64,000 nucleotides of DNA from Schmidtea polychroa (taxonomy: Eukaryota), in NCBI GenBank assembly GCA_044892525.1, contig CM097886.1:28458001-28522000 (forward strand), read 5' to 3'. Position numbers and translations under genes: made by a program. This document shows, one piece after another, positions 1-28,525 of this stretch; position 1 is the stretch's first letter; every line of letters begins with the position of its first letter. The notes under the pieces are model-generated. The model saw only the letters and a program-made list of their open reading frames with translations, was not told where the DNA came from and made no database searches.

Positions 1-606
1 GAGATTTATGATCTTTTAAAGATTCCAACTGTTTCTGAAGCTTCCAATTCAACAAAAAATAATCAAATTAAAGTCTTTTCCAATAAAGACAGCGAAATCA
101 TTCTGCAAGGACTGTCAGAAAAGGAAGTAGACGATGAAGCAGGGATTTACGAGTTGTTAAAAATAGGCGAAATTAACCGAAAAGTTGGGTCGACTTTGTT
201 AAATATATCTAGTTCTAGATCACATTTGATATTATTCATTAAAATTAGCGGTACCAGTGAGGTTCAAGGAATCACTAGCAGAGGAACATTAACTCTGTGC
301 GATCTAGCTGGCTCAGAAAATATTTGTAAATCTGGCGCTACTGGCACCCGATTTCAAGAAGCAACGTCCATAAATAAATCTCTAACAACTCTTGGTAGAG
401 TTTTCGATTCTCTTCGAAAGAATCAAAAACCTGCTTACAGAGAAAGTAAATTAACTCACATTCTTAAACCGACATTGGGTGGAGATTCTAAATGTCTTTT
501 ATTCGTTAATGTTCGTTCCGAATCTGAGAATGTTCACGAAACGTTAGGGACTTTGTATTTTGGTCAGAATGCAATGCAAGTTATGCCAGAAAAATGTAAG
601 CATTGA
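1..606 (+). CDS. Kinesin motor domain, C-terminal part (kinesin-14/KIFC-like C-terminal motor; 5' end outside window)
   Basis: Frame +1 is open from base 1 (EIYDLL...) and has SSRSH, DLAGSE, INKSL, PAYRESKLT and LGGDSK motifs. The stop follows right after the motor domain. Confidence 0.9.
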   Translation, partial: EIYDLLKIPTVSEASNSTKNNQIKVFSNKDSEIILQGLSEKEVDDEAGIYELLKIGEINRKVGSTLLNISSSRSHLILFIKISGTSEVQGITSRGTLTLCDLAGSENICKSGATGTRFQEATSINKSLTTLGRVFDSLRKNQKPAYRESKLTHILKPTLGGDSKCLLFVNVRSESENVHETLGTLYFGQNAMQVMPEKCKH

Positions 607-1296: not shown

Positions 1297-1328
1297 TGTT
1301 GGGCTAGAACTGATTTCTAGATCCAAAG
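1297..1328 (+). mobile_element. First 32 nt of an older same-family LTR (insertion target), ending in TSD AAAG (1325-1328)
   Basis: TGTTGGGCTAGAACTGATTTCTAGATCCAAAG matches the LTR head in the opposite orientation. It continues as AAAGTTAGAATC... at 23299. Confidence 0.8.
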
Positions 1329-2359
1329 TGGTGGGTTACTGATGATCAAATATTTTGCTCTTTAGTGCTGTTACCAGCGTAACCCAAGATACAACATTGT
1401 TTACCGCTTGATACCCGTTGAATGATCAACGTTGGTACTGTATCAAGAGGGTGAGTGCTCGCAAAAAGTGAGCGCACTACTTGCACTGTAATTGTCGAGC
1501 ACTCTACTGGGTTCACGGACTATCGTTAGAAGATATATGTCCGATTTACGCAGGTCCCTTATTATAATTACTTTCTCAACTATGCCTATACAAACTTTCT
1601 ATCCTCAAACGATCATAAGTCATCAGGAATCATACATTAATCTATTAAAACCTGTTCATACAATACCACATCTAAAATGTTTGAATATAAATTAAGTGAA
1701 ACATAGCCATAGTTTATTAAACATACCTTAAGAAATTTTTGAGGATAATGAATTTAATTATAACACAATCAAAAAAAAAACAACTTATATATTAGTGAAC
1801 ATACAAATAAGGGTCAGAAATTTCACCAACCACAACAACAAAATATAATAACTTTACAAGAACCATGATTGTTTATGACCGCGTATTATTTGACTAAGCG
1901 TATTTCGCGGTGACTATGACTGTCCTAGTTGACCTACAATGACACTCCCCTTTGTTGAGCCCGGGTAGTTATAGAGAGATGGTTAGATCAACAATCAAAA
2001 TCTCACAATACATTTTTGTTAATATTATTTTTTTAATTCAAGTTAAATAAATTCAAAATACATCAATAACTGTTACAAAACAATTCCCTATATAATTTTA
2101 AGAGATACTTCTAGAAAATTCAAATTGACTCAAACTTTATTTATTTTTAAAAATTTGTTTTCTATTAATAATAGATTTTTTTTCTAGAATTTTAAGAAAA
2201 TTTTAATTAAAATTTATAATAATATTAAATTAATTTTACAATACTCGTTACTTACATTTTAAACAAAACTTATACGTCAGTTTGAAGTATTTTAAACTTG
2301 TTTTAACTAATTATTTTTTTTTTAACAAACCATTTTTTTTATATTAGTAATATTTTGCA

Positions 2360-3028
2360 ATGAAAATTTTATCAGTTTTTCTTTTCTAATCATTGTTTAC
2401 TATGTAATGTCAGCTACAGTTAATGAAAATAATTGCGAAGGTATTTGGCACTTATTTTTATTATATTTAAAAATTGTTCAGTTTGTGTTAAGTTTGTGAG
2501 ACGCCTGAAAGATAGTATAGATGGAGACGAAAGTACAAATATCGAAAATATTGAAAATAAATTCAAAAAGATGAGCAAAACAAGTAAGGGAAAAGAATAA
2601 AGTCTGGTAAGGTATTATAACTGATTAATATAAAATTGTAATTTATTTTTAGTGTTATTATATTGGAGGATTGGTAACATCTACTGCATATATTGTAAAA
2701 CATTTGTCTCAGCCTTTGAGTTGGGTTATGCCCGCTGAAAAAGTCTGAAAAACTAAAAGCAATTGATTCACAAATTTGTGAATTAAAATATGGTATGTTC
2801 AGTTAAGATTTTAAATATTAATTCAACTATTTTTCAGACAAACCTATTGATCTTACTGGTATTAATGTAAACAAAGCTCGCGTTAAAGATCTCAAAAAAT
2901 ATTAGAAAGCTGGGGTGAAGAATGTAAAGGTTGTACAGAAAAACTGATTTTATCCGATTAATAAACGAAAAATGCCCATTTATGATCTTAAAGCAGCCAA
3001 GCAAAGAAATAGATTCAGGATGTTGTAA
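2360..3028 (+). pseudogene. MANF: MANF/ARMET-like pseudogene, 4 exons, inside 3' LTR
   Basis: Exons 2360-2440, 2482-2606, 2653-2792, 2838-3028 with GT-AG introns. They give a signal peptide, CEVCVKF, CYYIGG, DSQICELKYDKPIDL, RVKDLKK and WGEECKGCTEK (CxxC). Several 1-2 nt deletions and a TAA at 2598-2600 disrupt it. Confidence 0.88.
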
Positions 3029-3989
3029 TTAAATAAAACATTAAAATTCCCTTTGATCGAATATATTTGTGAGAAACAATTTGGAATTATTTAATTGTGG
3101 AAATCTAAAAGAAATTCTGAAAGATATTTTAATATAAGTTTTCCATTTTCCAACCCCAGGAAATGTATTTCATCAGGATGGTCCATCAACTGAGCTCGAA
3201 GGACTTTTTGGTATGAATATGATTCAAAGAAACAATTATGTGAATAAATTTGATGATCGAAATCAATAAACTTAGTCTTTGTTTTTCTTTTTCTTCTTTT
3301 GATCTAGTTAAAAATAAATTTAGTCTCTTTGATTTAGTTAAAAATAAATCCAATAATTTTAATAAATTAATAAATGATTCTACTAAATTACTTCAGTAAA
3401 CTACTCTATCCTCGTTCCATCACCTTAAAGGGGTTGTGACCATCACATAACAGGGGTCTTGAGGGGGAAGGTTATCGTATTGTTATAAGGTTGTTTTATA
3501 AATCGGTATGTACATACACACATCCACTTATATATACACATACATATACACCCACACATATATACATATATGGATATAATTTAAATTGTTAATATTGATG
3601 TCGTTTTCAGGGGGGGGGTGTTACTAAAAATAGATTTTAGTGATTTTCCGTAATTTTATTGGAAGATAGGGCCATTGAAACTAAATTTAGAGATAGGGGA
3701 ATCCCAAAATCAATAATTTGTTTTATAATTTTATTTTTATGAAATAAAGATAATTATTTTAATAATATAATAATAATAATGATAATAGTAATAATAATAG
3801 TAAGAGTNNNNNNNNNNNNNNNNNNNNNNNNNNNNNNNNNNNNNNNNNNNNNNNNNNNNNNNNNNNNNNNNNNNNNNNNNNNNNNNNNNNNNNNNNNNNN
3901 NNNNNNNNNNNNNNNNNNNNNNNNNNNNNNNNNNNNNNNNNNNNNNNNNNNNNNNATAATGAATGTAAATTTATATTTTTATAGGATTA

Positions 3990-4760
3990 CTACATATGGG
4001 GGGGGATCATTTACGAAAATTTATGGAATTATTTTTTTGGTTCAAATATAATTTAACTCTATACGAAGATGATACAATTCAGTATACTTAAGGAATAGTT
4101 AATGGCTACATGAGTTGAAGGGGGGTCATTTATGAAAATTTTCAATTTATATTTTAAAATATAATATAAGTTAAATATATATTAAGATAAGTTAATTTAG
4201 TATGCTTAGGTAATGGGTAAAGACTGTATAATTTTGAGGGGGGTCATTCATAAAAATTTACAATTTATATTTTTAAATATTATATAAGTTAAATGTATAT
4301 TTAGGTAGTAGTTGATGACGATATGGTTTATTGGGGGGTCTTTGATGAAAAATTTTCAACTATGATTTTAAAGGTAATCCAAGTTAAGTATATATATTAA
4401 ATAGTCTAACTGAGTGTATCAGGTAGTGGTTGATGGTTATATGAATTAAGGGGGGTCATTTATCAAAATTTTCCAAATTTATATAGTAAAGATAATGTAT
4501 TAATGTATTTAGACAATAATTAATGGTTAAGTGATCTGAGGAATTATTAAGTTTGATAACTGCACGTATATAAGTTAATTTATTGCTATATATATTGTTC
4601 TCGACTAATGTATAGTTTGAGGGGGGTACTCATGAAAAAGGTAAGTTATACTTTTATAAGTTTCAAATATACATATATAAGTTAGATTATGAATCTGGAC
4701 ATTTGTTTCGACCATTACGTAACTTGGGGGGGGGGGTATTTATAAAACATTTACAACTTA
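3990..4760. repeat. Diverged ~100-170 bp tandem repeat built on G6-9 tracts (GGGGGGTCATTTATGAAAATT), ~7 copies; second copy at ~20320-21090
   Basis: G-run motifs at ~3997, 4119, 4237, 4333, 4450, 4620, 4726. Confidence 0.7.
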
Positions 4761-4789
4761 TTATAGATTATATTTTTATCGCTAACGTA

Positions 4790-5400
4790 GTTTATATTTT
4801 ATACTTTTATGACCAAATTAAGATTATAATTTATAGTCTTTCAGCTAATATAAGTTTATAATTTATATTTTTATGAAATTAAATTTATAGTTTATGTTTT
4901 TAAAGCTAATATAATTTTATAATTTATACTTTTGAGTTTATAATTTATATTTTATGAAGTTAAGTTAAATTTATAGTTTATATTTTAAAGCTAATATAAT
5001 TTTATAATTTATATTTTTATGAAGTCAAATTTATAGTTTATATTTTAGAGCCCATATAATTTTATAATTTATACTTTTAAGTTTATAATTTATATTTGGT
5101 GAAGTTCAATTTATAGTTTATATTTCCAAAGCTAATATAATTTTATAATTTATATTTTTATGAAGTTAAGATTATAATTTATACTTTTATAATTAACTTA
5201 GAGTTATAATTTATAATTTTTATCGTCAATACAAATTTGTAATTTATAAATTCAAGAAATTAAATTTATAATTTATACCTTTATAACTAATCATAATTTA
5301 TATTTTGAAGAAATTAAATCTATAAGTATAATTCACATTTTTATGAAATTGAGATGATAATTTATACTTTTATGGGTTTACGATTTGTATTTTTATAGTT
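4790..5400. repeat. AT-rich minisatellite (TTATAATTTATA(C/T)TTT units) in LTR; second copy at ~21120-21720
   Basis: Many tandem TTATAATTTATA variants. Confidence 0.7.
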
Positions 5401-7199
5401 AGTTTAGAGTCTATTCAATTTAAAATCCAAGTCTTGCTGATACGCATGTCGAACACCTTTATGAATACTATCACTACTAAATCAATCATTTTTAAAAAAT
5501 CTTTACTTTACACTATTACTAGAAAATTTATTTAAGGCATTTATAAATCTAGATTCGACAAACGCATAGGTAGAGTTGGTTCTTGATGATATTTAACCGT
5601 CTACATTAATTGTGAATTGTAGAGTTGTGATTAATTTAGGTCTGAGATCTACTCTGTTTATTAACCTTAGTGTATCGTATTGTGATGATTTTGGATGTAG
5701 ATTTTAACTATGTAAATTATTCATGCATTGAAAGTCGGGAAGAGTGCTTGCTTACACGGCCCCACTGTGGCCGCTACGACAAGCCCTACTGTTGTGTGGA
5801 GTCGAATCATATCGCTGTCGACCTTTAATACATAATTATTGCCATAACAGAGGGGTTTTATCGACATAACTCTATGGTAGAACCATAAAGTGGCCGACCT
5901 CTGATGACCGAACAAAAAGAAACCAATAATATTGATAAGTGCGTGCCAGGCAGTGGCCTGCAATCATTGTGAACTGTGTACTCATCGATGATAAAGTGCA
6001 TAGGTGCAGGGTTGGCTGGGATCTCGCTTCAAAATCAATGATAACCGACGATCTCACTCAAACCTACATTTCTATAGTTAAAAAGAAATAATGAAAACAA
6101 GGTTTCAATAATAATAACTTATAATTCACAATGAAATCGTTCTTACCTACAATCTCAGAAAAATCAAAACCAAAAATTTGGCATAAGAGTAAAAATATTC
6201 ATTTGCATTTTTTTCCTTTCTTCCAAAGTGACGAAATGTGTTAGTTTATATAGCCTCTGTTTGACGTGTAAGTATACATGCGTGCATTGATGCAGTAAAA
6301 CAAATTCAGATTATTTTAATTCTCGAACATTCGATTTTTAATTTTTATCGATTTTGATGGCGATTTTTCAGTAAGAATTTTTGTTTTTATTTTTGAAATT
6401 TTATTTTCGAATTACTTTTTATTAAATTTGCCTCCATGATGGATTTCAGCATTTCCAGAACATTCCATGCTAAATTTAATCTATTTCTTATTTTTAAATT
6501 GTTTTTTATGATTTCTTTTCTAAAATATTTATTTTTTAAACTAAAATATTTATTTTTTATAAATTTTATTGGGTCGTTTGGCGGTCATGATGGATTTCGC
6601 CATTTTTATGAATTGTTCTGGATTTTTATTCAAAATATCGATATAATTTTCTTTACGTAAGATTTTATGAAGATTTTCTTTAATTTTCTTTTTTAATTTT
6701 TACTAATCGCCTTTATTCGAATTTGTTTTTTGTTGTTTTATGTCTTTCGGTTATATTTGAGTAAGTTTTCGTGTAATACTTCTTGCTCGTGTTTTATTTT
6801 ATTTTTAATTCAGATGTTTTATTTTTGGGTATATTATCTCTCTATTATCATTGTTTACTTGGTGTTTTATATATTTTTATTTAAGTAAACTTAATGCTGG
6901 GTATGCGTGTTGTGTACAGACACATTTCGTCCCATTCCTAACTTTGGGTCTAGAAATCAGTTCTAGCCCAACATAAAACACTCGGGGGCCCATAAAATTG
7001 CGACCCGCAATTTAATCAAAAGTTCAAGATATAATTAGACAGAATTGGTTGCACTGTATTACAAGTGCCTACATGTAATTGGGTCCACGAGCTACAGGGT
7101 CGTGACCTCAATACCCACATACATAAAAAGTTTCTACTGATACACTACATGCTACAGATTGGTTTAAAGATGAAGAGAAAGAAGACCACGGTCGGTCCA

Positions 7200-9009
7200 C
7201 ACAAAATTTAATCAAATTGTTATGCTCAAATAATATCAAAGTAATATATAATATTGGCATCAAATCACAATAATAGTCAAATCATATCATTGTCGAATCA
7301 TGTCAGGGTCATTGTTAAATCATATCTAGATCATTTTCAGATCATTGTCAATCGAATCAGGATCATTGTCAACACATAATAAGAACATTGTCAATCAACT
7401 CAAGATCGTTGTCATATTATATCAGGATCATTGTCGGTTTATATCAGGATTTAAACACTCGGTTGTTCGGGATCTCGTCTCGATGACGGCTCTAATTTTG
7501 AAGTTTGTAGAAGATAGATTTGATAGATTTGGTCTCTGGGTATTGGTTCTTCTATTAGAATGCGAATGCTTCGGAATTGTTCTTTCAACTTGAGAGTTTT
7601 GGTGCTTTCATGGATTTGAGTGGGTTAAGGGCTATCAAGCTCAGTATTGTTATTTATCATGAGATTCGCTGCTAACAGGATCAGTACTGTTATGGATTCG
7701 GGGTTTTTTTTACATTCAAAAAAAAAATTTTTTTTTTTATTTATTTTTTTTTCTCTGTTGACCTTGTTTTGATTGCCACTTCTTTCTTTATCTCTCGTCA
7801 CATGCTCACTGTTTTCATTAGTTGGATTGTATCAGTCGAGTTGAGTTCCTCTTCGAGGTTATTTGATTCAGTGTGTAGGGTATTGTTTACTGTCGTCATT
7901 ACTCCTTTCCAGATTTCCGTGAACATCTTTATTAGGACATTTTAGTATGCGAAGTCTTCGTTGAAGGTAGTTGATATTCTCCTCTTTATTCCTTCTAAAG
8001 TTTTGGTCATTGTCTCATGGTTCATCGGGATTTTGTCAATAGTTGTTATTATTTCCATCTATATCTCTCTCAATGTTTTTATTATTTCATCTTGAGTAAT
8101 TGTCTTTTCTTTGACTGCGTTATTTACCCTTTCCTTTATTTCTTCGAGCGTCTTTGTTTCATAGTTGCTCGGACATTCGTTGACAGTCATCATTATTCGC
8201 TGCTTTATTTCTTCTAAGATTTTTATTATTATTGTCATCTGGGATGTGGCTGATTCTTGCTGTGGTTCTCTCTTTAATTTCTGCTTTTCTCGTTACAATT
8301 CGTGTAGTACCTCCATGGCATAATCTACATCATCATAGGGTTTGACGTGTCCTATTAATAATCTTCTACACACTTTGTCCACACACAATAGTCTCTCCTC
8401 GAATTCATCTGACTTGACCTAATATTTTCTTATCAGCTCATAATTAATAGTTTTGTTCCTCCACTTCTCTCCACTTTCCCTCGGCATTCTGCCATGATAG
8501 CGTTTAATTTCGGATTTTCTACTTTGGCTATAATTTTGTTTGTTTACAGGGCTACTTTTCCCTTCTTTTATGCCTCTCTCGTTGAGTCCGGTTCCCCAGT
8601 TCCTGGTAGGCCGGTTATCCATTCAACTATACTCGTGATATCATCATGCTGACGGCCTTCGCGTAATCTCCTGATTTCTCCTGTCTACCATTTTATTTGG
8701 CTTATCAACTGTTTGTTATTGTATTCTAATTGTGCGATTATTTGTTGTTGCTCCTTTATTCTTGTTATATATATCGAGTTTCTATTGATGCTCTCCATTA
8801 ACGCATTCATAACCAAAGAATATTTTTGTCATTAATTCACCTTGTGTTCTTCACATTGATCCTGCTGACTAACTTGGTTGGTTTATCGTTGTACTTGTAT
8901 CAATTTCTACTATTTATGTCTGATTAATATTTACTAGTGGTTGATTTCCCAATTCAACAACATGTGGCATCCTCGTTTGATATACTTGATCCTCGTTTCT
9001 CTGATTCAT
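7200..9009 (-). pseudogene. Decayed accessory ORF3 of the LTR element (coiled-coil-like, unknown function)
   Basis: ATG at 9009 (MNQRNEDQVYQ...) is followed by long mostly-open stretches (LMESINRNSIYITRIKEQQQIIAQLEYNNKQL; TKTLEEIKERVNNAVKEKTITQDEIIKTLRE) broken by stops and frameshifts. DNDPD-like repeats occur near 7260-7450. Confidence 0.45.
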
Positions 9010-9146
9010 TTCTTATTTTTAATACGTAGTTATCATACCCATTTTTTTGTACTTTTTTTTTTTTTTTTTGAACATATTACTAATCTACTAAACTACTTTT
9101 AACATCACGTTTATATACACACTATTTACATCGACTCATCACTTTC

Positions 9147-10655
9147 TTATACCATTGTTGCCAGGGGACCTGAATGCAATGTGCGCATTCCCCCATATCT
9201 TTCATCCGTTAGTCGGTATATGTCAAATTCGTTTACACAATCGTCTAGGGTTTGTATTCTGAGTAATTCTTGCGTCCATAGTCTGCTTGACCTTGGATCT
9301 TCAATCGCTTCGTACTCTTCTGGATTCGGGTCTTCTGTTGGAATACCATATTCGGAATTCTCCACTTGTGGCCATCTTTTTCTGCCTTTAGGTTTTTGTT
9401 TACATATTTTGGAGGTTCTTATCCATTGGATTATTATTGATGTTATCACTGCACTCATTATTGCGCTAGCGATCCACATCATTTTAACGGTTATCAGTGT
9501 CTTGTTGTTGAATTTTCCTGTCGTCATCATCATTTTAGTTTCTGTTGTAGTTGCCTCCTGTGTTTTATTTTTCTTGAGCATCTGGTATAACTGTTTCGTT
9601 TCTTCTGCCGTTAGATGTTCGTTTCCTTTTGGCTTTTCCACTTCTTTTGGTTTTCTGGTTGCCAATGGTATGTTTATCAACCGTGGTCGTTGTCTGGTTA
9701 TTGCTTGGCATGAACTTAAATCGCTTCCGTTTTTAAGAACGCATATGTGGTATCGTCCCTTTCTTTCTCCTATTGTCATTTTAACTTCTGCACCTTTGTC
9801 AAGTAGTGTTTCTATGCAGTCGACTATTCCTGTCCTGTTTAGTACACATACTCTTACTATTGGTTCTTCACCTTGGTTTCTGACCGTGATTACTTCTTCT
9901 CTTTTCTTGTTGAATTCGACATTTACTAGTACTTCTCGTCTCTCATCTTTGATCCATATTACTGTTGTGTTTTTCTTGGTTTGGTGCTGTCCTCTTATCA
10001 TTCCCGTACGGGATTGTTTCTGGGGTTTCTTAATTGCCGGTTTGATCCTTGGTTGATATCTTTTACTAGCCATACTTTTTGGCCTGCTTTTTATTTGCGC
10101 GGTTTTAACTGCTTTACATACCACTATTGCCTGGGTACCTGCGCATACCACCATGTTGGTGTTTGGTTTTACGTTTGTCCAAAAAAATTCGCGATCTCGT
10201 TTCATGTCTACCGTTATACATATGTCTTCGTCATCTCTAAAACATATTTGCGTTGTTGGCAAATTTCCTTTATCTATTATTTCGATACCTTCCATTGTAG
10301 TTTTAATTGCGACATGTACTCCGGTTTCGTTAGCTCTTTCCAATTCTTTTTCTTCTGATGTTATGTCTTCGCAAATGTTGTAGTCTCCGCATAATTCAGG
10401 TTCTCCATTTTGACTATTGAAAATCCTCCCTTTTGTTATCGTTCTAAAATCACAACTTACTCCGGTTCCTTCCATCAATTGGATGCATATCCCGACCGCG
10501 TTTCCGTTGTTGCCGCTGACTTTTATCATGAATAGTTCGCCTTCTTTCAGATTTCCTCTCGTAATTCGCGTATTTTTCGTTTCTGTTAGGCAAATTGACG
10601 TTAGTATTATTAGGATAATTTATAGTAGGAGTGACTGGTTTAGATTCTTCCGCAT
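9147..10655 (-). CDS. Env-like type I membrane glycoprotein (signal-like peptide interrupted by TAA at 10620-10622)
   Basis: The 460 aa ORF extends upstream without stops to MRKNLNQSLLL*IILIILTSICLTET. It has 6 closely spaced Cys pairs, several N-x-T/S sites, a TM segment MWIASAIMSAVITSIIIQWI, then a basic stop-transfer stretch and a Tyr-motif tail. Confidence 0.7.
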
Positions 10656-13600
10656 TACTATGTTATGCATTGGGGACTTTCGTTTGTCGTTCTCTGTTTC
10701 ATTATGTTGGTTGTCTTCACTTTGGTCTGAGTTGTCCTCAGTATCCTTCAAGTCTTCGTCGTCATCTTCTGACTCCTTGTCTTCTTTATTATCTCGTTCG
10801 CCTGAGTTCCCATTTATGTTGTTCCTTTCATGGTTCCCGTCGTCTTCCTCATTTTTGTCGTTATGGTCTTTGTCATTTTTTCCACTCCGGCCTTTTCCAA
10901 AAATGTCGTCTTCGACATTTGATGTTTTGATCATTTCTTCGCGTTTATTTAAATGACTATTCTTCAGTGATTCTCTTACTATTGTCACTTTTCTGTTGGA
11001 TGGCCATGGTAATTCTTGTTCACATCTGATTCCTTCGTATTCACCATATTTTGATATCAACTCCGTTGCTCGTTTATATTCAAATCCCATAATTTCAGTA
11101 TCCCGTATGTCTTTGACAAACTGTTTCATTAGCTGCGGCCATCTTTCCCTCAATCTGTTAATATATTTCTTCGCTTGATCGATTGCTTGTTTTACTAAGA
11201 TTATTTGATTTTCCTTCCTTATCTTTTGTTCGGTCTTCTCTATTTCTGGTTCCACTTCATTGTTGAATATCTGTTGGATTTTCCTCAGTATTTCCGTTAC
11301 TGATGTGTTGTCTCTGTTTTTCTTTAAGATTAAGATATTAACTTCGTTTGACCATCCCATCACATCTACTAGATGTATGCTCATTTTAACTTTATAACAA
11401 TTGTCGTATAGCAGTTTATTCTTTTCCTGTACCCAATTATACAGTTCATCCATATTTGTTACTTTTAATTCAGTAATCTGCATCTGAGTTTCGGGGTGTT
11501 GAATACTCACCCGGCATTGATCTGGCTCAACTTCTTTCAATTTTCCTTTATATTTCGTCACCAAATCTTTCCATGTTGCCGTTAATATACCTCCTTCCCA
11601 CTGGTATGCTTCAGTTATCAGTTTTATACATTTTCTGTATGTTGGTTCGTTGATATAGCTTTCATTTCGTTCTCTTTCCGATACCGTGTCGGAAATTTCC
11701 TCAAATATTTCCTCATCGTCATTTTCTATCGGTGATTCCATATCGTCGCTCTCAGCCTCTTCGTTATTTTGAGATGTTCCTTGTTCATTATTTTCATCAC
11801 TTGATTGAAATAATTCACTTCTCAGGCTACTCACCGCACTTTTCTCGTCTTCCTGGTCCGTCTGATCATTCTGTATTTGTCTCAGCATGTTTATATTGGC
11901 TCTGTTACTTGGTTCTTTCTTTTCGAACCACTCATTTTTCCTGAACCAGTTGTCTTTTACTTTTTCTTTTACTTGCTCATCCGTTAAATTTGGTTCTTCT
12001 CTTCTAATTCTATCTTCAATTTTTTGTAGTAATACCCTCTGAATTCGATTCTTTGTAACAATCTCGTTGCTTTTTGGTTCGTGCCCTGTTTCATCTCTTC
12101 TTCTTCGTCTCTTTTCTTTTTCTTCTTTGGTGAACCTTTGTATTATTTTTATTTTATCCTCGCTACTCAGTTCTGTCAATTGCTCCGTCAATTGATGTGA
12201 CCCATTTTCTTTTATCACTTTTGTCTCGTTGATTACGGCCATATCGCTCCCTTCCTTGTTAACACACTGCTCCGCAGTGTGCGGTTCCCCTTTGTTCATT
12301 AATCTCATCATATTTATTCTTCCGGTGTTGGTTTCTCGCTTTTTCCATCTTTTTTGAATTTCTCTGGCTTTTTCGTTTAGTGGTCTCTGCCCTTCGATTC
12401 GTTGCTGATCTTTTTGTTCTCTTGTTGGTCGTTTTTGGATATCCTCTGGTATCCGTTGGATCATCTTTTTCAACTGTCCTATTTCCTGCATGATGTTGAC
12501 TTGTATATTTTGACTTGACTCGTTTGCTCTTGGTTGATTATGCTTTGTCCTCATCGCGCATTCTCTCGCCACATGTCCAAGTTGGTTGCAACTGTAGCAG
12601 GTTCTAGTCCTTCCTCCTCTCATCGACATCATTGGTCCTCGGCATATATTTTCTGTGTGACCCCTTTTACCGCAATTTTGGCACATCCTTGTCTTATAAC
12701 ACTCGTTGCTCCAATGTCCTAGTCGTTGACATATGTTACACTTCCGATTATTGTTCTCGTTGTTCCTGAAATTATTAGTGTAAAATTGAATATTACCTCT
12801 GTTATCTGGATTTGTCGTTTTTGGCGCCTTGAACAACTGTTGCGATTCTGAGATAAATTGATTCATTCCTAGATTTCCATTGTTGGTTTGATTAATTTCG
12901 GTTGTCGTTGTTGGTGTTGTAGCTATTGGTACTGCTGCCATTGCTGCTACTTGTACTGGAGTCAAGTAGTTTTCACATTTATTAGCGATTTTTAATGCTT
13001 CCTCGAGCGTGTCTGGTGCTCGGCACCCCACTGTTGCTCGTATGTCCTTTCTTTTCATACCCTCTACGAATACGGCTATTATCTTGTCTTCCGGAACTGT
13101 TTGATTTGAGTCGAATGCTTCTTTTGCCAGTCGTCTTAATTCACATGCATATGGTGCGTTTGACTCATTGTATTTCTGCTTTCGATGCAGAAAATCCAAC
13201 ATTTTGCGATTTACTTCCCTTTTGCTACCGAATGTTTTTATTAAAAAATTCTTTATTGATTTCCATGTTTTTAGTTTTGTTGCATCACACTTTGCCTCTA
13301 AATATACATCTTGTGCACTTCCTCTTAAATATAATGGTATTCGCTCTCGTACGACTATGTCTGGCCAGTGACATATCGTAATATATACCTCGAATTCTTT
13401 TATAAACGTTTCTACTTCATTAATATTCCCATCGAATGGTTCTCCTCGAAATCTTTCTCTAAATTCTCCAACATTGACGTTGACATGGTTTATCTCGGGT
13501 GTGTATGTCGACTCTGACCCATTCGGGTTGTTCACTTGGTTTCCGTCTAACATTATATCTCGACACAAACTTGTTATGCCTGAACTACTATCTTCCTTGT

Positions 13601-14069
13601 CTGTTGGTTTGATATCAGTTACCGGATATAATTCGTTTCTTTTAATATCGTCGCTGTTTTCACTGTCGTTGGTTAAGCTGTCTGATTCAAATAATGTTTT
13701 CACTGACGCTGGTCTCTTATTGATTCTTCTGTTTCTCTTGGCTCTTTGTCTCCCTGCGTTTCCTAATAAACTAGAGCCTCCTTTGCTCTGCGATCTCGTT
13801 CGATTGGCTTTATTATCAATTTTTCTTGCTTTAATAATCTCTTTTGAATTTCACTGTGTTTCGTTGGCCAACGCTTTAATTTTCCTCTTGGTATTTAATT
13901 TGACTTTGTTTACCTTTCTTCTATCCTCGTTTGATTCTCTTGATTCTTTGCTTGGTTTCTTTTGAATTTTTGATTTCTCTTTATTACTCTTGAATTCTTG
14001 GCTTCTATTGATTTCCTTCTGAATGGTTTGCTTTATTCTAAAATAATTAACACTCCTAGTACATATCAT
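10620..14069 (-). CDS. Gag-like protein with three CCHC zinc knuckles and a long charged C-terminal extension (one in-frame TGA at 13851-13853)
   Basis: Capsid-like PFDGNINEVETFIKEFE...LYLRGSAQDVY; knuckles CNICQRLGHWSNEC, CQNCGKRGHTENIC, CYSCNQLGHVAREC. The 72 aa ORF 13851-14069 is in the same frame. No protease D(T/S)G, RT or IN motif seen. Confidence 0.88.
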
Positions 14070-14554
14070 AATATTTTATTCATTTTATCCTACCCTTCAT
14101 TTATTTCCTTATTTCCCTTATTTTATACTACTCTTTACTCATTATTTCTCTCGTTGTTCCTTTTCTAATTCATGGTACGCTTTTACTTTTTGTTACTCAC
14201 CCCCTTTGAATTTAAGTCCATTTTTAATTATCTATAACTCGTATGAATTATCTATATCGTCGTATCAATTATCTATCATATAATCACAACATCAATTATA
14301 TAATTGAAAATATATATCATTAGTCATATACATATAAAACTCATCAGTAACTTAATTAATGTCTCCTCATTCGCTTTTCCCCATTCAAAAATTTGGTTTC
14401 AGTTTCTCTTGCGCCAGCGCTCTATCATAATTTTCCTTTACTCATTACATCTTTGTCGCACTTAATCTATTCAATTTAATCAATTTCATCTTAATCGTTT
14501 GTTTATAGTTAATCATCGATGCTTTGGTTCGCGCGATCTCTGCGTCTACATTTA

Positions 14555-15065
14555 TTTACCATCGGCTCCCTGGCCGGTTTAATCAACTCTCTTATTTCAT
14601 TTAAATCATTTCACTCAATTACCATCGGCTCTCTGGCCGGTTTAATCAACTCATTTTAATCCCATGAAGTCTTTTACGACTCCTCGACGCCTGGGCTTTT
14701 ACACCGTTACGCCATATAATCCATTATTACCCATCAACGCTTTGGTTTGTTAGACCTCCACGTCGGCATCGGCTTCCGGCCGGTTTAATCATAATCTGAA
14801 GTCTTTTACGACTCCTCGACGCCTGGGCTTTTACACCATTACGCCATATTATCCATTATTTCCCATCAACGCTTTGGTTTGTTAGACCTCCACGTCGGCA
14901 TCGGCTTCCGGCCGGTTTAATCATAATCTGAAGTCTTTTACGACTCCTCGACGCCTGGGCTTTTACACCATTACGCCATATTCGCGGTCTTCGGTCCCTG
15001 ACCGGTTTCAAATGCCCTAAATGAGGTTTCTTCAACCCCTCGACGCCTTCGGTTTTTACACCTAC
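14555..15065. repeat. GC-rich tandem repeats in the pre-gag leader (132 bp x ~2.5 plus 62 bp x 2)
   Basis: CCATCAACGCTTTGG at 14731 and 14863; GAAGTCTTTTACGACTCCTCGACGCC three times; CCATCGGCTC...GGCCGGTTTAATC at ~14559 and ~14621. Confidence 0.85.
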
Positions 15066-16386
15066 TATCGTCCCTACCGCGATTAAATTGAGTTGACAGT
15101 TGGCTTTCGGACTAATTAAAAATTTAAGGCTCCTCCTACTCAAATTCCTAATCTGCTGAGGCCTCACAACTGGCTCAATTCTTGGCCGCTTATTGAAAAG
15201 AGTCTAATACCGGTAACTCTAATCTCATCGCCGTTTCACTGGGCCTATCGGTACTCGGTGTGGGCATCCGGGTTTTGTACCGACCCCTGCTAGCAATAAT
15301 CACGAAGAAAAAACATCCTATCTATCAGGATTTAAAAAACACGGAAATACCTAATCGCCTCGATCTTGATTCTCAAAAGTGATGAACCAGATCTCCCGAC
15401 TAGTGAAGATAAAAGGAAATTGGATATGCAGTTGACTTTCGGTCCTCCGCCTCACAACTGGTCCAATCTTGGTTGCCTGTTGAGTACGAGTCCTTTACCG
15501 GTTGACCCGCATCTCACAACCGTTTCACTGGGCTCCTTAATACTCGGTGTAGGTAACTGGGTCTCTCTCGCTCGCTACCCTTCCGGGTTTTTGTATCAAG
15601 TCCCGCTAGCCAATCAAAAAAAAATGCGCCCAATACTCGGTGTGGGTATCCGGGTTTTTGTATTGGGTGATCCAGCATCATCAGTCCCTTGGCTGATAAT
15701 CTCCTGGACACTACAGTCCGGTGGTTAGCCGCTGTACTCGGGTGCCTCATCACTCGCTAGGGAAAAATTCATATCAATGAGTACTCCTCATCCGATTTGA
15801 AGTCCAAAAACGGTTTCTTCAAATCCGCAGCTGCTCTCGGATAATGTTAATTTTTAATCTTTTGGTGCACATTTTCAATTTTTATTTTTATCTTTTTCTT
15901 TTTATTTACCCTTCTAGTTTGTCCTAGTCTCCCAAATTAAAAAAAAATATAATAATCGCGTTGGTTCATTTCCCACAAGTGGTGATCAGTCACTCGACAG
16001 AAACTCCCCAACATTTGCGATGGGCCCAATTATACTCTTCTCATCAAGGTGATCAGGATTTCCCCATCCGGGTAAGCATCGTAGGGACGATATGCTTCTC
16101 ATCCCCTTATGGTCCTGTCTCTCTATGCCAGAAATAATAAAACAAAAACAGGAAAAAAAATGGTAATCGTACTGATCTTATAGATCAGCTCACACTTGAT
16201 GCGATCCCAGCCAGTCCTGTATTTAATTCACGGCTTTCGCCAATTTAATTTGTGTGTTGCTTGTCTATTTATTTAACGGCTTTTGTGTATTTCATATGTC
16301 TATGTTCAACGTATGTTTTATACCTTTCGGTTGCTATTATGGAATTAGTTTTACTAACTTTTTACTAACTCACACTCAGCAGCAAT

Positions 16387-16823
16387 TCATTTCATCATCT
16401 TTAATTTTTCTACATCTCCCTTAGGGATGTATACTACTACTCTTTCTCTCACGTTTGCATCACATACATTACAATGGTTTCAGTTTCAATGCATAATCTT
16501 GGTAATAACATCGATGTCCGCAATGTACCATCATTATTTTTATCTCATTGCTTCTACACACACAACATTTGAACTCATTATCGATCGCCTCTCTTATCGC
16601 ATCTTCAACCGTTTAAATTTTTATCTTTAATTCTTGCCATTTGATGTTAAATTTGGCCTTATCTAAACGTAAATTCTGAATCTGATATACTCTTTGAGTA
16701 GTTAATTCCACATTTGGTGTAGCAATTCTCGTCATTATACACAATTCATCATCAACTGGTCTTGGTTTTAAGATCAGTCCTTCTTGGATGTTTGCCAACT
16801 GCTCTGCTTTTCAATTCAATCAT
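16387..16823 (-). pseudogene. Decayed ORF0: helical segment plus C-terminal IAP-type C3HC4 RING finger
   Basis: Reading through TAA 16613-16615 and one 1-nt frameshift gives CCVCRSNEIKIMMVHCGHRCY[Y]QD[Y]ALKLK/HCNVCDANVRERVVVYIP. The spacing is C-x2-C-x11-C-x-H-x3-C-x2-C-x6-C-x2-C, with two Cys lost by single TGY>TAY changes. Confidence 0.72.
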
Positions 16824-17660
16824 TGTAGTGAGTTGTTAGTTAAATTTACGAATTTTCAAGTTTCTTTATAATGTAGCCGGTTAATTCCATCAAGTTATAC
16901 TTTATTAATTCAGCATTTTATTAAGTGTTCTTATTCCCCTTTAATTAGCTTACCTCTACCCATTTATTTCCTTATTCAAATTAAGTAAGTTCAATAGCTG
17001 TTTTACCCTGTTAGTTTAGGCTCCCAATCCATTAAATGATGTTCCGCGCATTCTTATCCGTTCCCTCTAGTTTATTATCTTAGTCTACGTAACCCTTTTG
17101 ATCCCAGCGTGTCCATAATTTTAGTCATTTGATCAAGTACTCAATATAACCCTTTAATCTTTAACTTATTTTTACATCTTCCCCCTATTTTTAATTAATT
17201 GCATCACCTATCTATTTCTATTTCGCAATTCACTGTTTTATGCTTTATCCCCTTTTTCTATATACCGTTATCTTCTATCCCCCCTTTTCCCTATTTTTGA
17301 GTTTTTTATTATTTTCTTATATATACAAAGTATTAGTTGTTTATATTTACAATTTTTATTATTTTTGATTTTAATTTCATTTCTTACCCATCAACATTCT
17401 ATCCCATCAACACGGAACGCTCATACATTATTCTCATACTCAGTTTTATTGATTTTCTATATTTACATAATTTAAAACATTTTATTCATCATGTACAACA
17501 TTCAACATTCATTTTGATCATACACGCATATTCACACATCATGTCTAGTTATTTGAGAAAACAATCTTTCTTACTCTTGCATAAAGCATTTCATTTCCTG
17601 ATCATAAAAACGCTATGCATTCCCGTCTACTTACAGGTTCTTTACCAAGAAAGTTTATAT

Positions 17661-17678
17661 ATCCCGGCTGAGCCCCCA
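17661..17678 (-). promoter_or_regulatory. Primer-binding site for tRNA-Pro
   Basis: Minus strand TGGGGGCTCAGCCGGGAT matches the canonical tRNA-Pro PBS TGGGGGCTCGTCCGGGAT at 16/18 positions, 8 nt inside the 5' LTR. Confidence 0.85.
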
Positions 17679-18718
17679 AATTTGTATGGTGGGTTACTGA
17701 TGATCAAATATTTTGCTCTTTAGTGCTGTTACCAGCGTAACCCAAGATACAACATTGTTTACCGCTTGATACCCGTTGAATGATCAACGTTGGTACTGTA
17801 TCAAGAGGGTGAGTGCTCGCAAAAAGTGAGCGCACTACTTGCACTGTAATTGTTGAGCACTCTACTGGGTTCACGGACTATCGTTAGAAGATATATGTCC
17901 GATTTACGCAGGTCCCTTATTATAATTACTTTCTCAACTATGCCTATACAAACTTTCTATCCTCAAACGATCATAAGTCATCAGGAATCATACATTAATC
18001 TATTAAAACCTGTTCATACAATACCACATCTAAAATGTTTGAATATAAATTAAGTGAAACATAGCCATAGTTTATTAAACATACCTTAAGAAATTTTTGA
18101 GGATAATGAATTTAATTATAACACAATCAAAAAAAAAACAACTTATATATTAGTGAACATACAAATAAGGGTCAGAAATTTCACCAACCACAACAACAAA
18201 ATATAATAACTTTACAAGAACCATGATTGTTTATGACCGCGTATTATTTGACTAAGCGTATTTCGCGGTGACTATGACTGTCCTAGTTGACCTACAATGA
18301 CACTCCCCTTTGTTGAGCCCGGGTAGTTATAGAGAGATGGTTAGATCAACAATCAAAATCTCACAATACATTTTTGTTAATATTATTTTTTTAATTCAAG
18401 TTAAATAAATTCAAAATACATCAATAACTGTTACAAAACAATTCCCTATATAATTTTAAGAGATACTTCTAGAAAATTCAAATTGACTCAAACTTTATTT
18501 ATTTTTAAAAATTTGTTTTCTATTAATAATAGATTTTTTTTCTAGAATTTTAAGAAAATTTTAATTCAAAATTTATAATAATATTAAATTAATTTTACAA
18601 TACTCGTTACTTACATTTTAAACAAAACTTATACGTCAGTTTGAAGTATTTTAAACTTGTTTTAACTAATTATTTTTTTTTTAACAAACCATTTTTTTTA
18701 TATTAGTAATATTTTGCA

Positions 18719-19387
18719 ATGAAAATTTTATCAGTTTTTCTTTTCTAATCATTGTTTACTATGTAATGTCAGCTACAGTTAATGAAAATAATTGCGAAGG
18801 TATTTGGCACTTATTTTTATTATATTTAAAAATTGTTCAGTTTGTGTTAAGTTTGTGAGACGCCTGAAAGATAGTATAGATGGAGACGAAAGTACAAATA
18901 TCGAAAATATTGAAAATAAATTCAAAAAGATGAGCAAAACAAGTAAGGGAAAAGAATAAAGTCTGGTAAGGTATTATAACTGATTAATATAAAATTGTAA
19001 TTTATTTTTAGTGTTATTATATTGGAGGATTGGTAACATCTACTGCATATATTGTAAAACATTTGTCTCAGCCTTTGAGTTGGGTTATGCCCGCTGAAAA
19101 AGTCTGAAAAACTAAAAGCAATTGATTCACAAATTTGTGAATTAAAATATGGTATGTTCAGTTAAGATTTTAAATATTAATTCAACTATTTTTCAGACAA
19201 ACCTATTGATCTTACTGGTATTAATCTAAACAAAGCTCGCGTTAAAGATCTCAAAAAATATTAGAAAGCTGGGGTGAAGAATGTAAAGGTTGTACAGAAA
19301 AACTGATTTTATCCGATTAATAAACGAAAAATGCCCATTTATGATCTTAAAGCAGCCAAGCAAAGAAATAGATTCAGAATGTTGTAA
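18719..19387 (+). pseudogene. MANF: MANF/ARMET-like pseudogene, second copy inside 5' LTR
   Basis: Same exons, introns and disabling lesions as 2360-3028; differs by GTA/CTA and one G/A. Confidence 0.88.
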
Positions 19388-20127
19388 TTAAATAAAACAT
19401 TAAAATTCCCTTTGATCGAATATATTTGTGAGAAACAATTTGGAATTATTTAATTGTGGAAATCTAAAAGAAATTCTGAAAGATATTTTAATATAAGTTT
19501 TCCATTTTCCAACCCCAGGAAATGTATTTCATCGGGATGGTCCATCAACTGAGCTCGAAGGACTTTTTGGTATGAATATGATTCAAAGAAACAATTATGT
19601 GAATAAATTTGATGATCGAAATCAATAAACTTAGTCTTTGTTTTTCTTTTTCTTCTTTTGATCTAGTTAAAAATAAATTTAGTCTCTTTGATTTAGTTAA
19701 AAATAAATCCAATAATTTTAATAAATTAATAAATGATTCTACTAAATTACTTCAGTAAACTACTCTATCCTCGTTCCATCACCTTAAAGGGGTTGTGACC
19801 ATCACATAACAGGGGTCTTGAGGGGGAAGGTTATCGTATTGTTATAAGGTTGTTTTATAAATCGGTATGTACATACACACATCCACTTATATATACACAT
19901 ACATATACACCCACACATATATACATATATGGATATAATTTAAATTGTTAATATTGATGTCGTTTTCAGGGGGGGTGTTACTAAAAATAGATTTTAGTGA
20001 TTTTCCGTAATTTTATTGGAAGATAGGGTCATTGAAACTAAATTTAGAGATAGGGGAATCCCAAAATCAATAATTTGTTTTATAATTTTATTTTTATGAA
20101 ATAAAGATAATTATTTTAATAATATAA

Positions 20128-20187
20128 TAATAATAATGATAATAGTAATAATAATAGTAAGAGTGGTGATGTTATTGGTAACAATGC

Positions 20188-20241
<54 letters not shown>

Positions 20242-20286
20242 CAATAATAATAATAATAATATTAATAACGGTAATAATAATAATAA
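20128..20286. repeat. (AAT)n microsatellite within LTR (N gap at the equivalent site in the other LTR)
   Basis: Direct reading; explains the poly-Ile ORF 20136-20387. Confidence 0.95.
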
Positions 20287-23200
20287 TGAATGTAAATTTA
20301 TATTTTTATAGGATTACTACATATGGGGGGGGGGGATCATTTACGAAAATTTATGGAATTATTTTTTTGGTTCGAAATATAATTTAACTCTATACGAAGA
20401 TGATACAATTCAGTATACTTAAGGAATAGTTAATGGCTACATGAGTTGAAGGGGGGTCATTTATGAAAATTTTCAATTTATATTTTAAAATATAATATAA
20501 GTTAAATATATATTAAGATAAGTTAATTTAGTATGCTTAGGTAATGGGTAAAGACTGTATAATTTTGAGGGGGGTCATTCATAAAAATTTACAATTTATA
20601 TTTTTAAATATTATATAAGTTAAATGTATATTTAGGTAGTAGTTGATGACGATATGGTTTATTGGGGGGTCTTTGATGAAAAATTTTCAACTATGATTTT
20701 AAAGGTAATCCAAGTTAAGTATATATATTAAATAGTCTAACTGAGTGTATCAGGTAGTGGTTGATGGTTATATGAATTAAGGGGGGTCATTTATCAAAAT
20801 TTTCCAAATTTATATAGTAAAGATAATGTATTAATGTATTTAGACAATAATTAATGGTTAAGTGATCTGAGGAATTATTAAGTTTGATAACTGCACGTAT
20901 ATAAGTTAATTTATTGCTATATATATTGTTCTCGACTAATGTATAGTTTGAGGGGGGTACTCATGAAAAAGGTAAGTTATACTTTTATAAGTTTCAAATA
21001 TACATATATAAGTTAGATTATGAATCTGGACATTTGTTTCGACCATTACGTAACTTGGGGGGGGGTATTTATAAAACATTTACAACTTATTATAGATTAT
21101 ATTTTTATCGCTAACGTAGTTTATATTTTATACTTTTATGACCAAATTAAGATTATAATTTATAGTCTTTCAGCTAATATAAGTTTATAATTTATATTTT
21201 TATGAAATTAAATTTATAGTTTATGTTTTTAAAGCTAATATAATTTTATAATTTATACTTTTGAGTTTATAATTTATATTTTATGAAGTTAAGTTAAATT
21301 TATAGTTTATATTTTAAAGCTAATATAATTTATATTATATTTTATGAAGTCAAATTTATAGTTTATATTTTAGAGCCCATATAATTTTATAATTTATACT
21401 TTTAAGTTTATAATTTATATTTGGTGAAGTTCAATTTATAGTTTATATTTCCAAAGCTAATATAATTTTATAATTTATATTTTTATGAAGTTAAGATTAT
21501 AATTTATACTTTTATAATTAACTTAGAGTTATAATTTATAATTTTTATCGTCAATACAAATTTGTAATTTATAATTTCAAGAAATTAAATTTATAATTTA
21601 TACCTTTATAACTAATCATAATTTATATTTTGAAGAAATTAAATCTATAAGTATAATTCACATTTTTATGAAATTGAGATGATAATTTATACTTTTATGG
21701 GTTTACGATTTGTATTTTTATAGTTAGTTTAGAGTCTATTCAATTTAAAATCCAAGTCTTGCTGATACGCATGTCGAACACCTTTATGAATACTATCACT
21801 ACTAAATCAATCATTTTTAAAAAATCTTTACTTTACACTATTACTAGAAAATTTATTTAAGGCATTTATAAATCTAGATTCGACAAACGCATAGGTAGAG
21901 TTGGTTCTTGATGATATTTAACCGTCTACATTAATTGTGAATTGTAGAGTTGTGATTAATTTAGGTCTGAGATCTACTCTGTTTATTAACCTTAGTGTAT
22001 CGTATTGTGATGATTTTGGATGTAGATTTTAACTATGTAAATTATTCATGCATTGAAAGTCGGGAAGAGTGCTTGCTTACACGGCCCCACTGTGGCCGCT
22101 ACGACAAGCCCTACTGTTGTGTGGAGTCGAATCATATCGCTGTCGACCTTTAATACATAATTATTGCCATAACAGAGGGGTTTTATCGACATAACTCTAT
22201 GGTAGAACCATAAAGTGGCCGACCTCTGATGACCGAACAAAAAGAAACCAATAATATTGATAAGTGCGTGCCAGGCAGTGGCCTGCAATCATTGTGAACT
22301 GTGTACTCATCGATGATAAAGTGCATAGGTGCAGGGTTGGCTGGGATCTCGCTTCAAAATCAATGATAACCGACGATCTCACTCAAACCTACATTTCTAT
22401 AGTTAAAAAGAAATAATGAAAACAAGGTTTCAATAATAATAACTTATAATTCACAATGAAATCGTTCTTACCTACAATCTCAGAAAAATCAAAACCAAAA
22501 ATTTGGCATAAGAGTAAAAATATTCATTTGCATTTTTTTCCTTTCTTCCAAAGTGACGAAATGTGTTAGTTTATATAGCCTCTGTTTGACGTGTAAGTAT
22601 ACATGCGTGCATTGATGCCGTAAAACAAATTCAGATTATTTTAATTCTCGAACATTCGATTTTTAATTTTTATCGATTTTGATGGCGATTTTTCAGTAAG
22701 AATTTTTGTTTTTATTTTTGAAATTTTATTTTCGAATTACTTTTTATTAAATTTGCCTCCATGATGGATTTCAGCATTTCCAGAACATTCCATGCTAAAT
22801 TTAATCTATTTCTTATTTTTAAATTGTTTTTTATGATTTCTTTTCTAAAATATTTATTTTTTAAACTAAAATATTTATTTTTTATAAATTTTATTGGGTC
22901 GTTTGGCGGTCATGATGGATTTCGCCATTTTTATGAATTGTTCTGGATTTTTATTCAAAATATCGATATAATTTTCTTTACGTAAGATTTTATGAAGATT
23001 TTCTTTAATTTTCTTTTTTAATTTTTACTAATCGCCTTTATTCGAATTTGTTTTTTGTTGTTTTATGTCTTTCGGTTATATTTGAGTAAGTTTTCGTGTA
23101 ATACTTCTTGCTCGTGTTTTATTTTATTTTTAATTCAGATGTTTTATTTTTGGGTATATTATCTCTCTATTATCATTGTTTACTTGGTGTTTTATATATT

Positions 23201-23298
23201 TTTATTTAAGTAAACTTAATGCTGGGTATGCGTGTTGTGTACAGACACATTTCGTCCCATTCCTAACTTTGGGTTTAGAAATCAGTTCTAGCCCAACA

Positions 23299-24230
23299 AA
23301 AGTTAGAATCGTGACAAAATGTGTCGGAACATAGCATGCATACCCAGAATGAAGTTTACTTAAAATGAAATATATAAACATCAAATAAACAAATAAAATA
23401 GAAAAGCATAACACACAAAAATTAAAAATATCCAAATAATAATAAATTAAAAACCAAGCAAGAAGTATTGGACGAAAACCTACTCAAATATAACCAAAAC
23501 ACATAAAACAACCAAAACAAATTCGAATAAAAGTGGTTAGTAAGCATTAAAAATTAAATTAAAGAAAATTTCAATAAAATTCTACTTAAAGAAAAATTAT
23601 CCAGAACAATCCATAAAAAATGGCGAAATCCATCATGGCCGCCAAACGACTTAATAAAAGTTAGAAAATAAATATTTAAGTTTTAAAATAATAAAAATTC
23701 TAAAAAGAATATGAGATAGATTAAATTTATCATGGAATCGTCTGAAAATGCCCATATCCATCAATGAAGCAAATTTAGTAAAAAACAATTCAAAAATAAA
23801 AACAAAAATTATGACGTCAAAATTGATAAAAATTAAAAATCGGATGTTCTAGAAATAAAATAATTCAAATGTGTTTTACTGCACTAATGCACGCACACAA
23901 ACTTGCACACTAAAATAGGGTATATAAACTAAGACATTTCGTCACTTTTCATTCTTACTCTTATGCCAAAATTTTGATTTTGATCTTTCTAAGATTGAAA
24001 GTAGGGACGATTTTGTTGTGAATTATAAATTATTATTATTTAAACCTCGTTTTCATTTTTTCAATATGCTAAAAAGGTGTTGGTTTGAGTGAGATCGTCG
24101 GTTATCATTGATTTTGAAGCAAGATCCCAGCCAACCCTACACCTATGCATCTTTTCGTTGTTGGGTCCAAAACTCAGCAACGGCTAGCGAACCCAAGTCA
24201 ATAAAATGAATTTTTCTTTCTGGTCGCCAA
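23299..24230 (+). mobile_element. Older diverged LTR head of the same family (remainder of the insertion target)
   Basis: Reverse-complement similarity to ~22230-23265, e.g. GAGTGAGATCGTCGGTTATCATTGATTTTGAAGC and CTTATGCCAAA. Confidence 0.8.
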
Positions 24231-24693: not shown

Positions 24694-24698
24694 GCTTA

Positions 24699-28446: not shown

Positions 28447-28525
<79 letters not shown>

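Follow-up and report, generated by a model that had tools for sequence, protein, structure and literature searches.

The 64,000-nucleotide stretch of Schmidtea polychroa DNA analysed here (contig CM097886.1, positions 28,458,001 to 28,522,000; hereafter the window) carries a ~22-kb long terminal repeat (LTR) element at positions 1329..23298, read on the minus strand, which by its sequence is an in-frame deletion derivative of the Burro-type giant Ty3/gypsy lineage. Through a single ancestral set of in-frame deletions, Gag became fused to a C-terminal membrane protein and both the fusogen and pol were lost, and the resulting family spread independently after the loss of pol to at least 114 sites in the genome. 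The same genome harbours a pol-bearing relative, referred to below as the helper, while the pol-less family is referred to as the satellite. We put at roughly 70% the probability that the satellite is a non-autonomous Burro derivative that is likely copied by the protease (PR), reverse transcriptase (RT) and integrase (IN) of the co-resident helper, and that likely makes its own Gag to package its own RNA.

The helper is ~35 kb long and encodes a polyprotein of ~4,790 amino acids (aa) in the order Gag, MATH, envelope (Env), PR, RT, RNase H (RH), IN, ankyrin (Ank) and membrane protein, followed downstream by TRAF-like, BIR-RING and further open reading frames (ORFs). Set against this layout, the full 1,572-aa frame of the satellite corresponds to helper residues 6-967, a scrap of ~30 aa from the MATH domain and, at 53% identity, the C-terminal ~600 aa of the polyprotein. 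The Gag part is 72% identical in aa to helper residues 6-967 and matches Retrotrans_gag (Pfam, E 4e-6) and zf-CCHC (E 2e-10), with three CCHC knuckles; the membrane protein is 53-60% identical to the helper C-terminus. The two junctions that flank the MATH scrap together remove MATH, Env, PR, RT, RH, IN and Ank, a loss of ~9.6 kb of ORF relative to the helper. An origin from spliced helper RNA was rejected because the breakpoints show microhomology and no GT..AG splice signals; they are consistent with template jumps. Gag and membrane protein form a single frame in most copies. In the window copy a stop at 10620-10622 separates 1,076 codons of Gag frame from 490 codons that continue in phase; of 54 copies it is the only one with this stop. 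When the polyproteins of the helper and of two other families were searched against the whole element with tblastn, the matches were confined to gag, the MATH scrap and the C-terminal protein: no PR, RT, RH, IN or fusogen was found, nor any counterpart of the helper's PF24664 fusogen region. An earlier note on this DNA had likewise seen no protease, reverse transcriptase, RNase H or integrase, which the six-frame search upholds; its description of the frame as Gag/Env-like was right about Gag and wrong about Env, since the fusogen of the lineage lay in the deleted part. A search for longer relatives of Gag found none, which is weak evidence, and the helical region behind the knuckles gave no usable match in the ESM Atlas. 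Upstream of the first ATG, some 100 codons (13553-13850) lack stops in the satellite as well as in the helper (dN/dS 0.38), a hint that translation may begin at a non-AUG codon or that the leader is spliced.

The amplification of the family is seen directly in the genome. A 26-mer marker across the deletion junction and a gag marker each occur at 114 sites, one for the membrane protein occurs at 120, and the reversed-pattern controls of all three gave 0; among the matches listed (the first 100 of each) the three markers lie ~2.9 kb apart, and seven outliers that were fetched are partial or insertion-bearing satellites. Of 578 candidates in a protein search with the 490-aa part, 87 matches were scored, with identities of 94-100%. 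By eye, about 55 of these run through a single frame of 1,565-1,580 codons free of stops, and for none of the 87 is the frame longer than 1,587 aa. Nine of ten sampled copies have a complete LTR pair and their own 4-bp target-site duplication (TSD), and the tenth has an insertion in its 3' LTR. The earlier proposal of a non-autonomous family is supported, and the family is an amplified one. LTR pairs are 97.8-99.96% identical in the nine complete satellites, and some differ by 0-1 mismatches, from which it follows that a helper was at work very recently. Contigs from two runs that belong to different studies (X6 and X8) span the junction, and some copies stand in tandem at ~16-kb spacing. In one satellite (L132, G000:C1:55.49 Mb) the leader is cut by a Polinton-like element with an ORF for a protein-primed DNA polymerase B.

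The exact junction of LTR end and primer-binding site (PBS) occurs 376 times in the genome. Twenty PBS sites, chosen to leave out known satellite sites, led in 17 cases to helper-type gag and in one case each to a full satellite, a truncated satellite leader and a different derivative, and the four helper sites that were followed reached pol and a 3' LTR. Across 77 PBS sites the distance from the PBS to the 3' motif described below is bimodal, with 21 interiors of 9.6-11.3 kb (~10.7) and 31 of 24.7-26.7 kb (~25.5); a further 11 have another length and 14 are unpaired. Helper-type and satellite gag are 77-82% identical in DNA, and in a gag tree 21 satellites are split from 11 helpers by a 100/100 branch, the two groups being 79-82% apart. 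Helper LTR pairs are 99.8-100% identical (n=4), all with 4-bp TSDs, and all 40 helper RT stretches that were scored show 100% identity; satellite and helper families are both young. A pol-bearing partner sharing LTR ends and PBS, as envisaged in the earlier note, is present in the form of this helper. The label virus-like suits the helper, with its class III-type fusogen (viral fusion glycoprotein PF24664, E 4e-69), and does not suit the satellite, which has lost it. Other derivatives of the helper exist. In a single copy (L024, G000:C1:39.31 Mb) pol is deleted and Env kept; its junction occurs once in the genome and has not spread. A second pol-less derivative (L025, L130, L131; G000:C1:39.42-39.47 Mb) has four PBS sites in tandem with a 15.8-kb period; it contains 1 kb of gag and, on the opposite strand, two ORFs of 322 aa with RRM domains.

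Satellite and helper agree exactly at all four cis junctions. Runs of identical sequence are found at the LTR start (17 nt), at the LTR end (13 nt), after the 5' LTR (26 nt) and before the 3' LTR (42 nt), while the LTR middles do not align; the helper LTR can be aligned (67-78%) only to about the first 700 nt, the last 290 nt and a 340-nt patch of the satellite LTR. The PBS consists of the last 15 nt of the 3' end of the host tRNA-Pro(TGG) gene plus CCA, set 8 nt from the LTR end; the 3'-end pattern of this tRNA, the primer of these elements, has 1,580 matches genome-wide. The tRNA-Pro(TGG) genes themselves form a tandem array with a 475-bp period at G000:C1:130.90-130.95 Mb and beyond (L135). 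No polypurine tract (PPT) precedes the 3' LTR of the window element, the last 30 nt being 40% purines, and the helper likewise has none. The PPT position is occupied by the 42-nt element, a hairpin followed by a palindrome (Table 1), which is identical in the helper, is kept in a distant Burro family with a 4,811-aa polyprotein and occurs at 530 genomic sites (control 0); a third giant family, with a 3,334-aa polyprotein, has a normal PPT. As RNA, the 3' hairpin region is not more stable than shuffled sequences (z 0.08), so that the case for the hairpin rests on conservation. The inner LTR junctions mirror each other, each with CA, an 8-nt spacer and a G-run (6974-7015 and 17661-17686; L046:7490-7537). 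No comparable replacement of a PPT by a hairpin was found in the literature searched.

In the mechanism proposed here, satellite RNA would be translated into a Gag-membrane-protein precursor of ~1,470 aa that is anchored by its internal signal helix. Satellite Gag would package its own RNA and co-assemble with the helper polyprotein in mixed particles, in which the helper protease would cut at the retained R/N-I-N-M-M sites, tRNA-Pro would prime satellite cDNA and the helper integrase would insert it with a 4-bp duplication. The motif R/N-I-N-M-M/L occurs three times in the satellite (shuffle mean 0.17) and lies at domain borders in the helper, which makes these motifs candidate protease cleavage sites.

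Selection on the frame was assessed from variants in 54 of 61 copies, seven partial copies having been dropped. The first 20 copies were picked partly by known ORF length, so that single lesions are under-counted; the remaining 40 follow the order of the list, with tandem partners and some copies with nested insertions passed over. The 1,572-codon frame is intact in 31 of the 54. Stops and synonymous changes stand at 16:88 among singletons versus 1:72 among variants found in four or more copies (p=0.0014), and frameshifts, single versus widely shared, number 17 and 0 in the ORF; in the relic next to it they number 32 and 25 (p=0.0003), or 11 and 11 outside homopolymers. Stops and frameshifts are purged from shared variants; therefore replicating lineages keep the frame open. 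In the Gag core the ratio of nonsynonymous to synonymous changes (N/S) falls from 3.1 in singletons (16 synonymous, 50 nonsynonymous) to 1.1 in widely shared variants (14 and 16; p=0.035, uncorrected), and no lesion of the core is shared; constraint on the amino acids is thus weak, and seen only in Gag.

A number of observations weigh against the preferred explanation. The Gag value of p=0.035 comes from one region out of five and would be lost on correction. Over the whole frame, single variants and shared ones do not differ in N/S (p=0.25), and in the membrane protein the variants of the 54 copies reveal no constraint on the amino acids. A stop in the membrane protein is common to four copies, three of which also share a frameshift behind the zinc knuckles, so broken copies can still multiply, and the singleton lesions may include assembly errors. 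The dN/dS of the satellite relative to the helper (0.13-0.25, with dS about 0.9-1.2) was rejected as proof of selection, because dead relics are equally low (0.08-0.30). Most of the divergence then predates the deletion: the parent was a sister lineage of the helper, and the low dN/dS mostly records its autonomous past. The protease-site motif was derived from the very proteins in which it is counted. The 4,811-aa Burro family could also act as a helper, since PBS, hairpin and the first 10 bases of the LTR are common to it as well. Expression, particle formation and trans-mobilisation of the satellite are predictions of the model. Among the sequencing runs searched, none verified as RNA contains the element; a raw RNA run (X22) yielded 0 reads, which does not count as a test, and run X6, which covers the element deeply, can only be guessed to be RNA.

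These points lend some weight to a pure RNA parasite, an explanation that is possible and distinctly less probable than the one preferred. Here the helper would supply all proteins, and the frame would stay open only so that a 10-kb RNA dodges nonsense-mediated decay, or because the family is young. Such a parasite would fit the purging of stops and frameshifts alongside amino-acid changes that are mostly not purged, the unconstrained membrane-protein part and the lesions common to 2-4 copies. It fits less well with the Gag core, where shared replacements are fewer and no lesion is shared, and with the mouse element IAP 1delta1, whose fusion protein is reported to act in cis (PMC6466679).

By analogy, the satellite might instead be a mutualist that supplies surplus Gag to a helper making Gag and Pol 1:1, which we regard as rather unlikely. 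Helper Gag and Pol do share an open frame in which neither stop nor shift was seen, the satellite is as young as the helper and the wheat pair Quinta and Cereba offers a precedent (PMC11302176). Against this, the purging of lesions along satellite lineages points to a benefit in cis and not to donation, and the one-frame design is found in the 4,811-aa and 3,334-aa families as well.

It is more improbable still that the satellite arose recently from, and was copied by, an autonomous sister subfamily that has since disappeared or is missing from the assembly. The dS to the helper and the old coding signal in the relics do argue for a sister lineage as parent. Yet the gag, junction and membrane-protein markers agree in number and, among the matches listed, in spacing, the outliers fetched being satellites, none of the 87 scored matches lies in a longer frame and some copies have nearly identical LTRs. 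In the gag tree of 32 sequences and among the seven marker outliers, no satellite-type gag is joined to pol. An assembly artefact or segmental duplication, to which the tandem copies and a further copy ~5 kb beyond the left edge of the window might point, is refuted for the family by the individual flanks and TSD of each sampled copy and by the junction-spanning contigs of two other runs.

Returning to the helper-dependent satellite with its own Gag, a broader picture can be sketched that we hold as doubtful: a two-component Burro system in which a fusogen-less satellite with a membrane-anchored Gag and an Ig-like protein would co-assemble with the 1:1 helper, tuning particle stoichiometry or cell targeting, and in which both would start plus-strand DNA at the hairpin and palindrome and not at a PPT.

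The helper is assigned to the Burro1/GYPSM1 type because its layout equals the published description, not by sequence comparison. Burro1/GYPSM1 is a giant planarian gypsy-like element of over 30 kb with a ~4,800-aa ORF1, a three-CCHC Gag, MATH, an env placed in frame after gag and before pol, PR-RT-RH-IN and ankyrin, and with BIR and RING as accessory genes (PMC6431247). The helper likewise exceeds 30 kb, with an ORF of ~4,800 aa and BIR and RING genes. For the ubiquitin/SUMO-like, BCL2-like and dUTPase-like domains, published assignments of which used HHpred, Pfam gave in the helper only a weak OTU1_UBXL (E 0.025). The window element descends from that lineage and differs in lacking MATH (except the scrap), Env, pol, Ank and BIR; on its sequence it is a derivative and not an autonomous member of the Burro lineage, nor is it an unrelated giant family. 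The available part of that account mentions no pol-less Burro family, C-terminal membrane protein or missing PPT.

Non-autonomous partners of LTR elements are known elsewhere, and the satellite may work like two of them. RLG_Quinta of wheat is a pol-less partner of the autonomous RLG_Cereba, with gag plus a domain whose function is not known, for which a contribution of Gag has been proposed (PMC11302176). PBS and LTR termini are common to both families, as they are here. The wheat pair is centromeric in a plant, has a classical PPT and no envelope, and what the satellite, unlike Quinta, carries beside gag is the membrane protein from the C-terminus of its own helper, brought up to Gag by in-frame deletion. 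In the mouse, an internal 1.9-kb gag-pol deletion gave IAP 1delta1 a new fusion ORF (PMC6466679), which makes it, too, a non-autonomous element with a fusion ORF formed by internal deletion; it is vertebrate and betaretrovirus-like, whereas the satellite lost far more of its ORF and is ~20% diverged from its helper. Pol-less copies of Athila in Arabidopsis keep ORFs under purifying selection (PMC2410132); they belong to a plant, carry gag or env-like genes as separate ORFs and owe the evidence of selection to codon models, while that of the satellite comes mainly from purged stops and frameshifts. The statement in the earlier note that pol-less, gag-retaining elements (TR-GAG/LARD) are mainly known from plants understates the animal precedents, which include IAP 1delta1, ETn, VL30 and MaLR (PMC6466679) and the defective D-type elements that dominate new insertions of bovine ERVK (PMC10924933). 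The flatworm GAG-ENV-POL errantiviruses, a survey of which covers intact gag-env-pol elements (PMC13524379), share with the helper the gene order and a class III-type fusogen. The available parts of PMC13524379, PMC8532177 and PMC11410931 mention no pol-less Burro, those of PMC13524379 no pol-less partners either, and the readable supplementary files of PMC11410931 hold no Burro match. No Burro satellite was found in the literature searched; Grohme 2018, Jurka 2007 and Repbase lie beyond that scope and may bear on novelty.

In the satellite, the largest animal LTR elements have a natural minimal counterpart. What its 114 insertions have retained, namely the LTR ends, PBS, leader, 42-nt non-PPT signal and open Gag frame, marks needs in cis, while what has decayed or been deleted (pol, fusogen, RING, TRAF, IAP) can be borrowed. 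It opens questions about the cis preference of Gag in an invertebrate gypsy element, the making of particles from 1:1 Gag-Pol and plus-strand priming without a PPT. With 21 satellite-length against 31 helper-length interiors among the 77 PBS sites, annotation based on RT would miss several percent of the family's activity.

The retained membrane protein is the second membrane protein of the polyprotein and not the Env of the lineage. Searches for homologues gave 0 matches in one case and three weak ones (E above 5e-6) in another, a sequence search of the PDB gave 0, the best ESM Atlas score (0.81) is a lead only and internal repeats of the ectodomain were not supported by hhalign (probabilities under 4%). 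The N-terminal two thirds of the structural model are of low confidence and unreliable; the confident part, the membrane-proximal residues 204-294 (pLDDT 65-80), is a beta-sandwich that aligns with generic immunoglobulin (Ig)-like sandwiches (Z 9.3, root-mean-square deviation 2.8, 87 residues aligned). The membrane-proximal domain is accordingly predicted to be Ig-like, and the membrane protein that bears it is probably not a fusogen. In all three giant families examined the polyprotein ends in a signal helix, an ectodomain and a transmembrane helix, which lie at L060:6689-7822 in the 3,334-aa family (no Pfam match) and at L046:1202-2473 in the 4,811-aa family.

At the locus itself the earlier reading of the architecture stands. 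The near-identical 5.6-kb direct repeats with TG..CA ends, the AAAG TSD, the tRNA-Pro PBS and the repeated leader were all confirmed (Table 1), and the LTR pair is ~99.8% alike with an N run excluded (5,481 matches, 8 mismatches, 8 gaps). The leader is about 83% identical to that of the helper over 1.9 kb. The suggestion that RING ORF0 and ORF3 are cargo genes fails, both being what decay has left of accessory genes of the helper: ORF0 is broken in the window and in 20 of 20 other sampled copies, ORF3 in 12 of 12 copies examined, with stops common to copies.

Table 1. Features of the satellite element and adjoining LTR remains, in window coordinates
Feature	Position	Strand	Remarks
TSD AAAG, left	1325..1328	.	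4-bp
3' LTR	1329..6973	-	5,645 bp, TG..CA ends
42-nt cis element at PPT position	6974..7015	-	7-bp inverted repeat, 3-nt loop, then GC palindrome
ORF3 relic	7458..8523	-	fusion of helper TRAF-like gene (N-terminus) and last 341-aa membrane-protein gene
C-terminal membrane protein	9147..10655	-	internal signal-like helix, Cys-rich ectodomain, transmembrane helix, Tyr-rich tail
Gag part of single frame	10620..13850	-	first ATG 13553; Retrotrans_gag, three CCHC, helical region, acidic spacer
Two in-frame deletion junctions flanking ~30-aa MATH scrap	10926..11027	-	short microhomologies
132-bp tandem repeat, 2.4 copies	14665..14982	.	in ~3.8-kb leader
RING (C3HC4) ORF0 relic	16423..16855	-	from helper's 160-aa RING gene; three stops and a frameshift
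PBS	17661..17678	-	18/18 nt complementary to host tRNA-Pro(TGG) + CCA
5' LTR	17687..23298	-	5,612 bp, TG..CA ends, internal AT-rich tandem arrays
TSD AAAG, right	23299..23302	.	4-bp
Older related LTR fragment	23299..24154	+	76-87% alike, opposite orientation; initial ~30 nt at about 1297-1328
End of second old related LTR	24367-25163		85% alike

The insertion target of the window element was the older related LTR fragment. Within 24367-25163 lies a minus-strand coiled-coil ORF of 154 codons that resembles DNA in L058. The neighbouring satellite copy ~5 kb past the left edge of the window is in opposite orientation (L078, L079), and between the two stands an intronless kinesin gene with a C-terminal motor (window 1-603 and L078:8660-10000). 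Another intronless gene, a 451-aa tubulin ORF (L059:2450-3802), is located ~2.7 kb upstream of the 5' LTR of the element with the 3,334-aa polyprotein, outside that element. Further along the window, exons of a host DNAAF5/HEATR2-like gene occupy 28198-37582 on the minus strand (PF25757, first exon E 5e-88), and the regions 52020-54050 and 56404-57161 hold a decayed gypsy-like gag-protease fragment, about 90% alike to L053 DNA, together with protein kinase exons (Pfam Pkinase) that are presumably CK2-like from their look.

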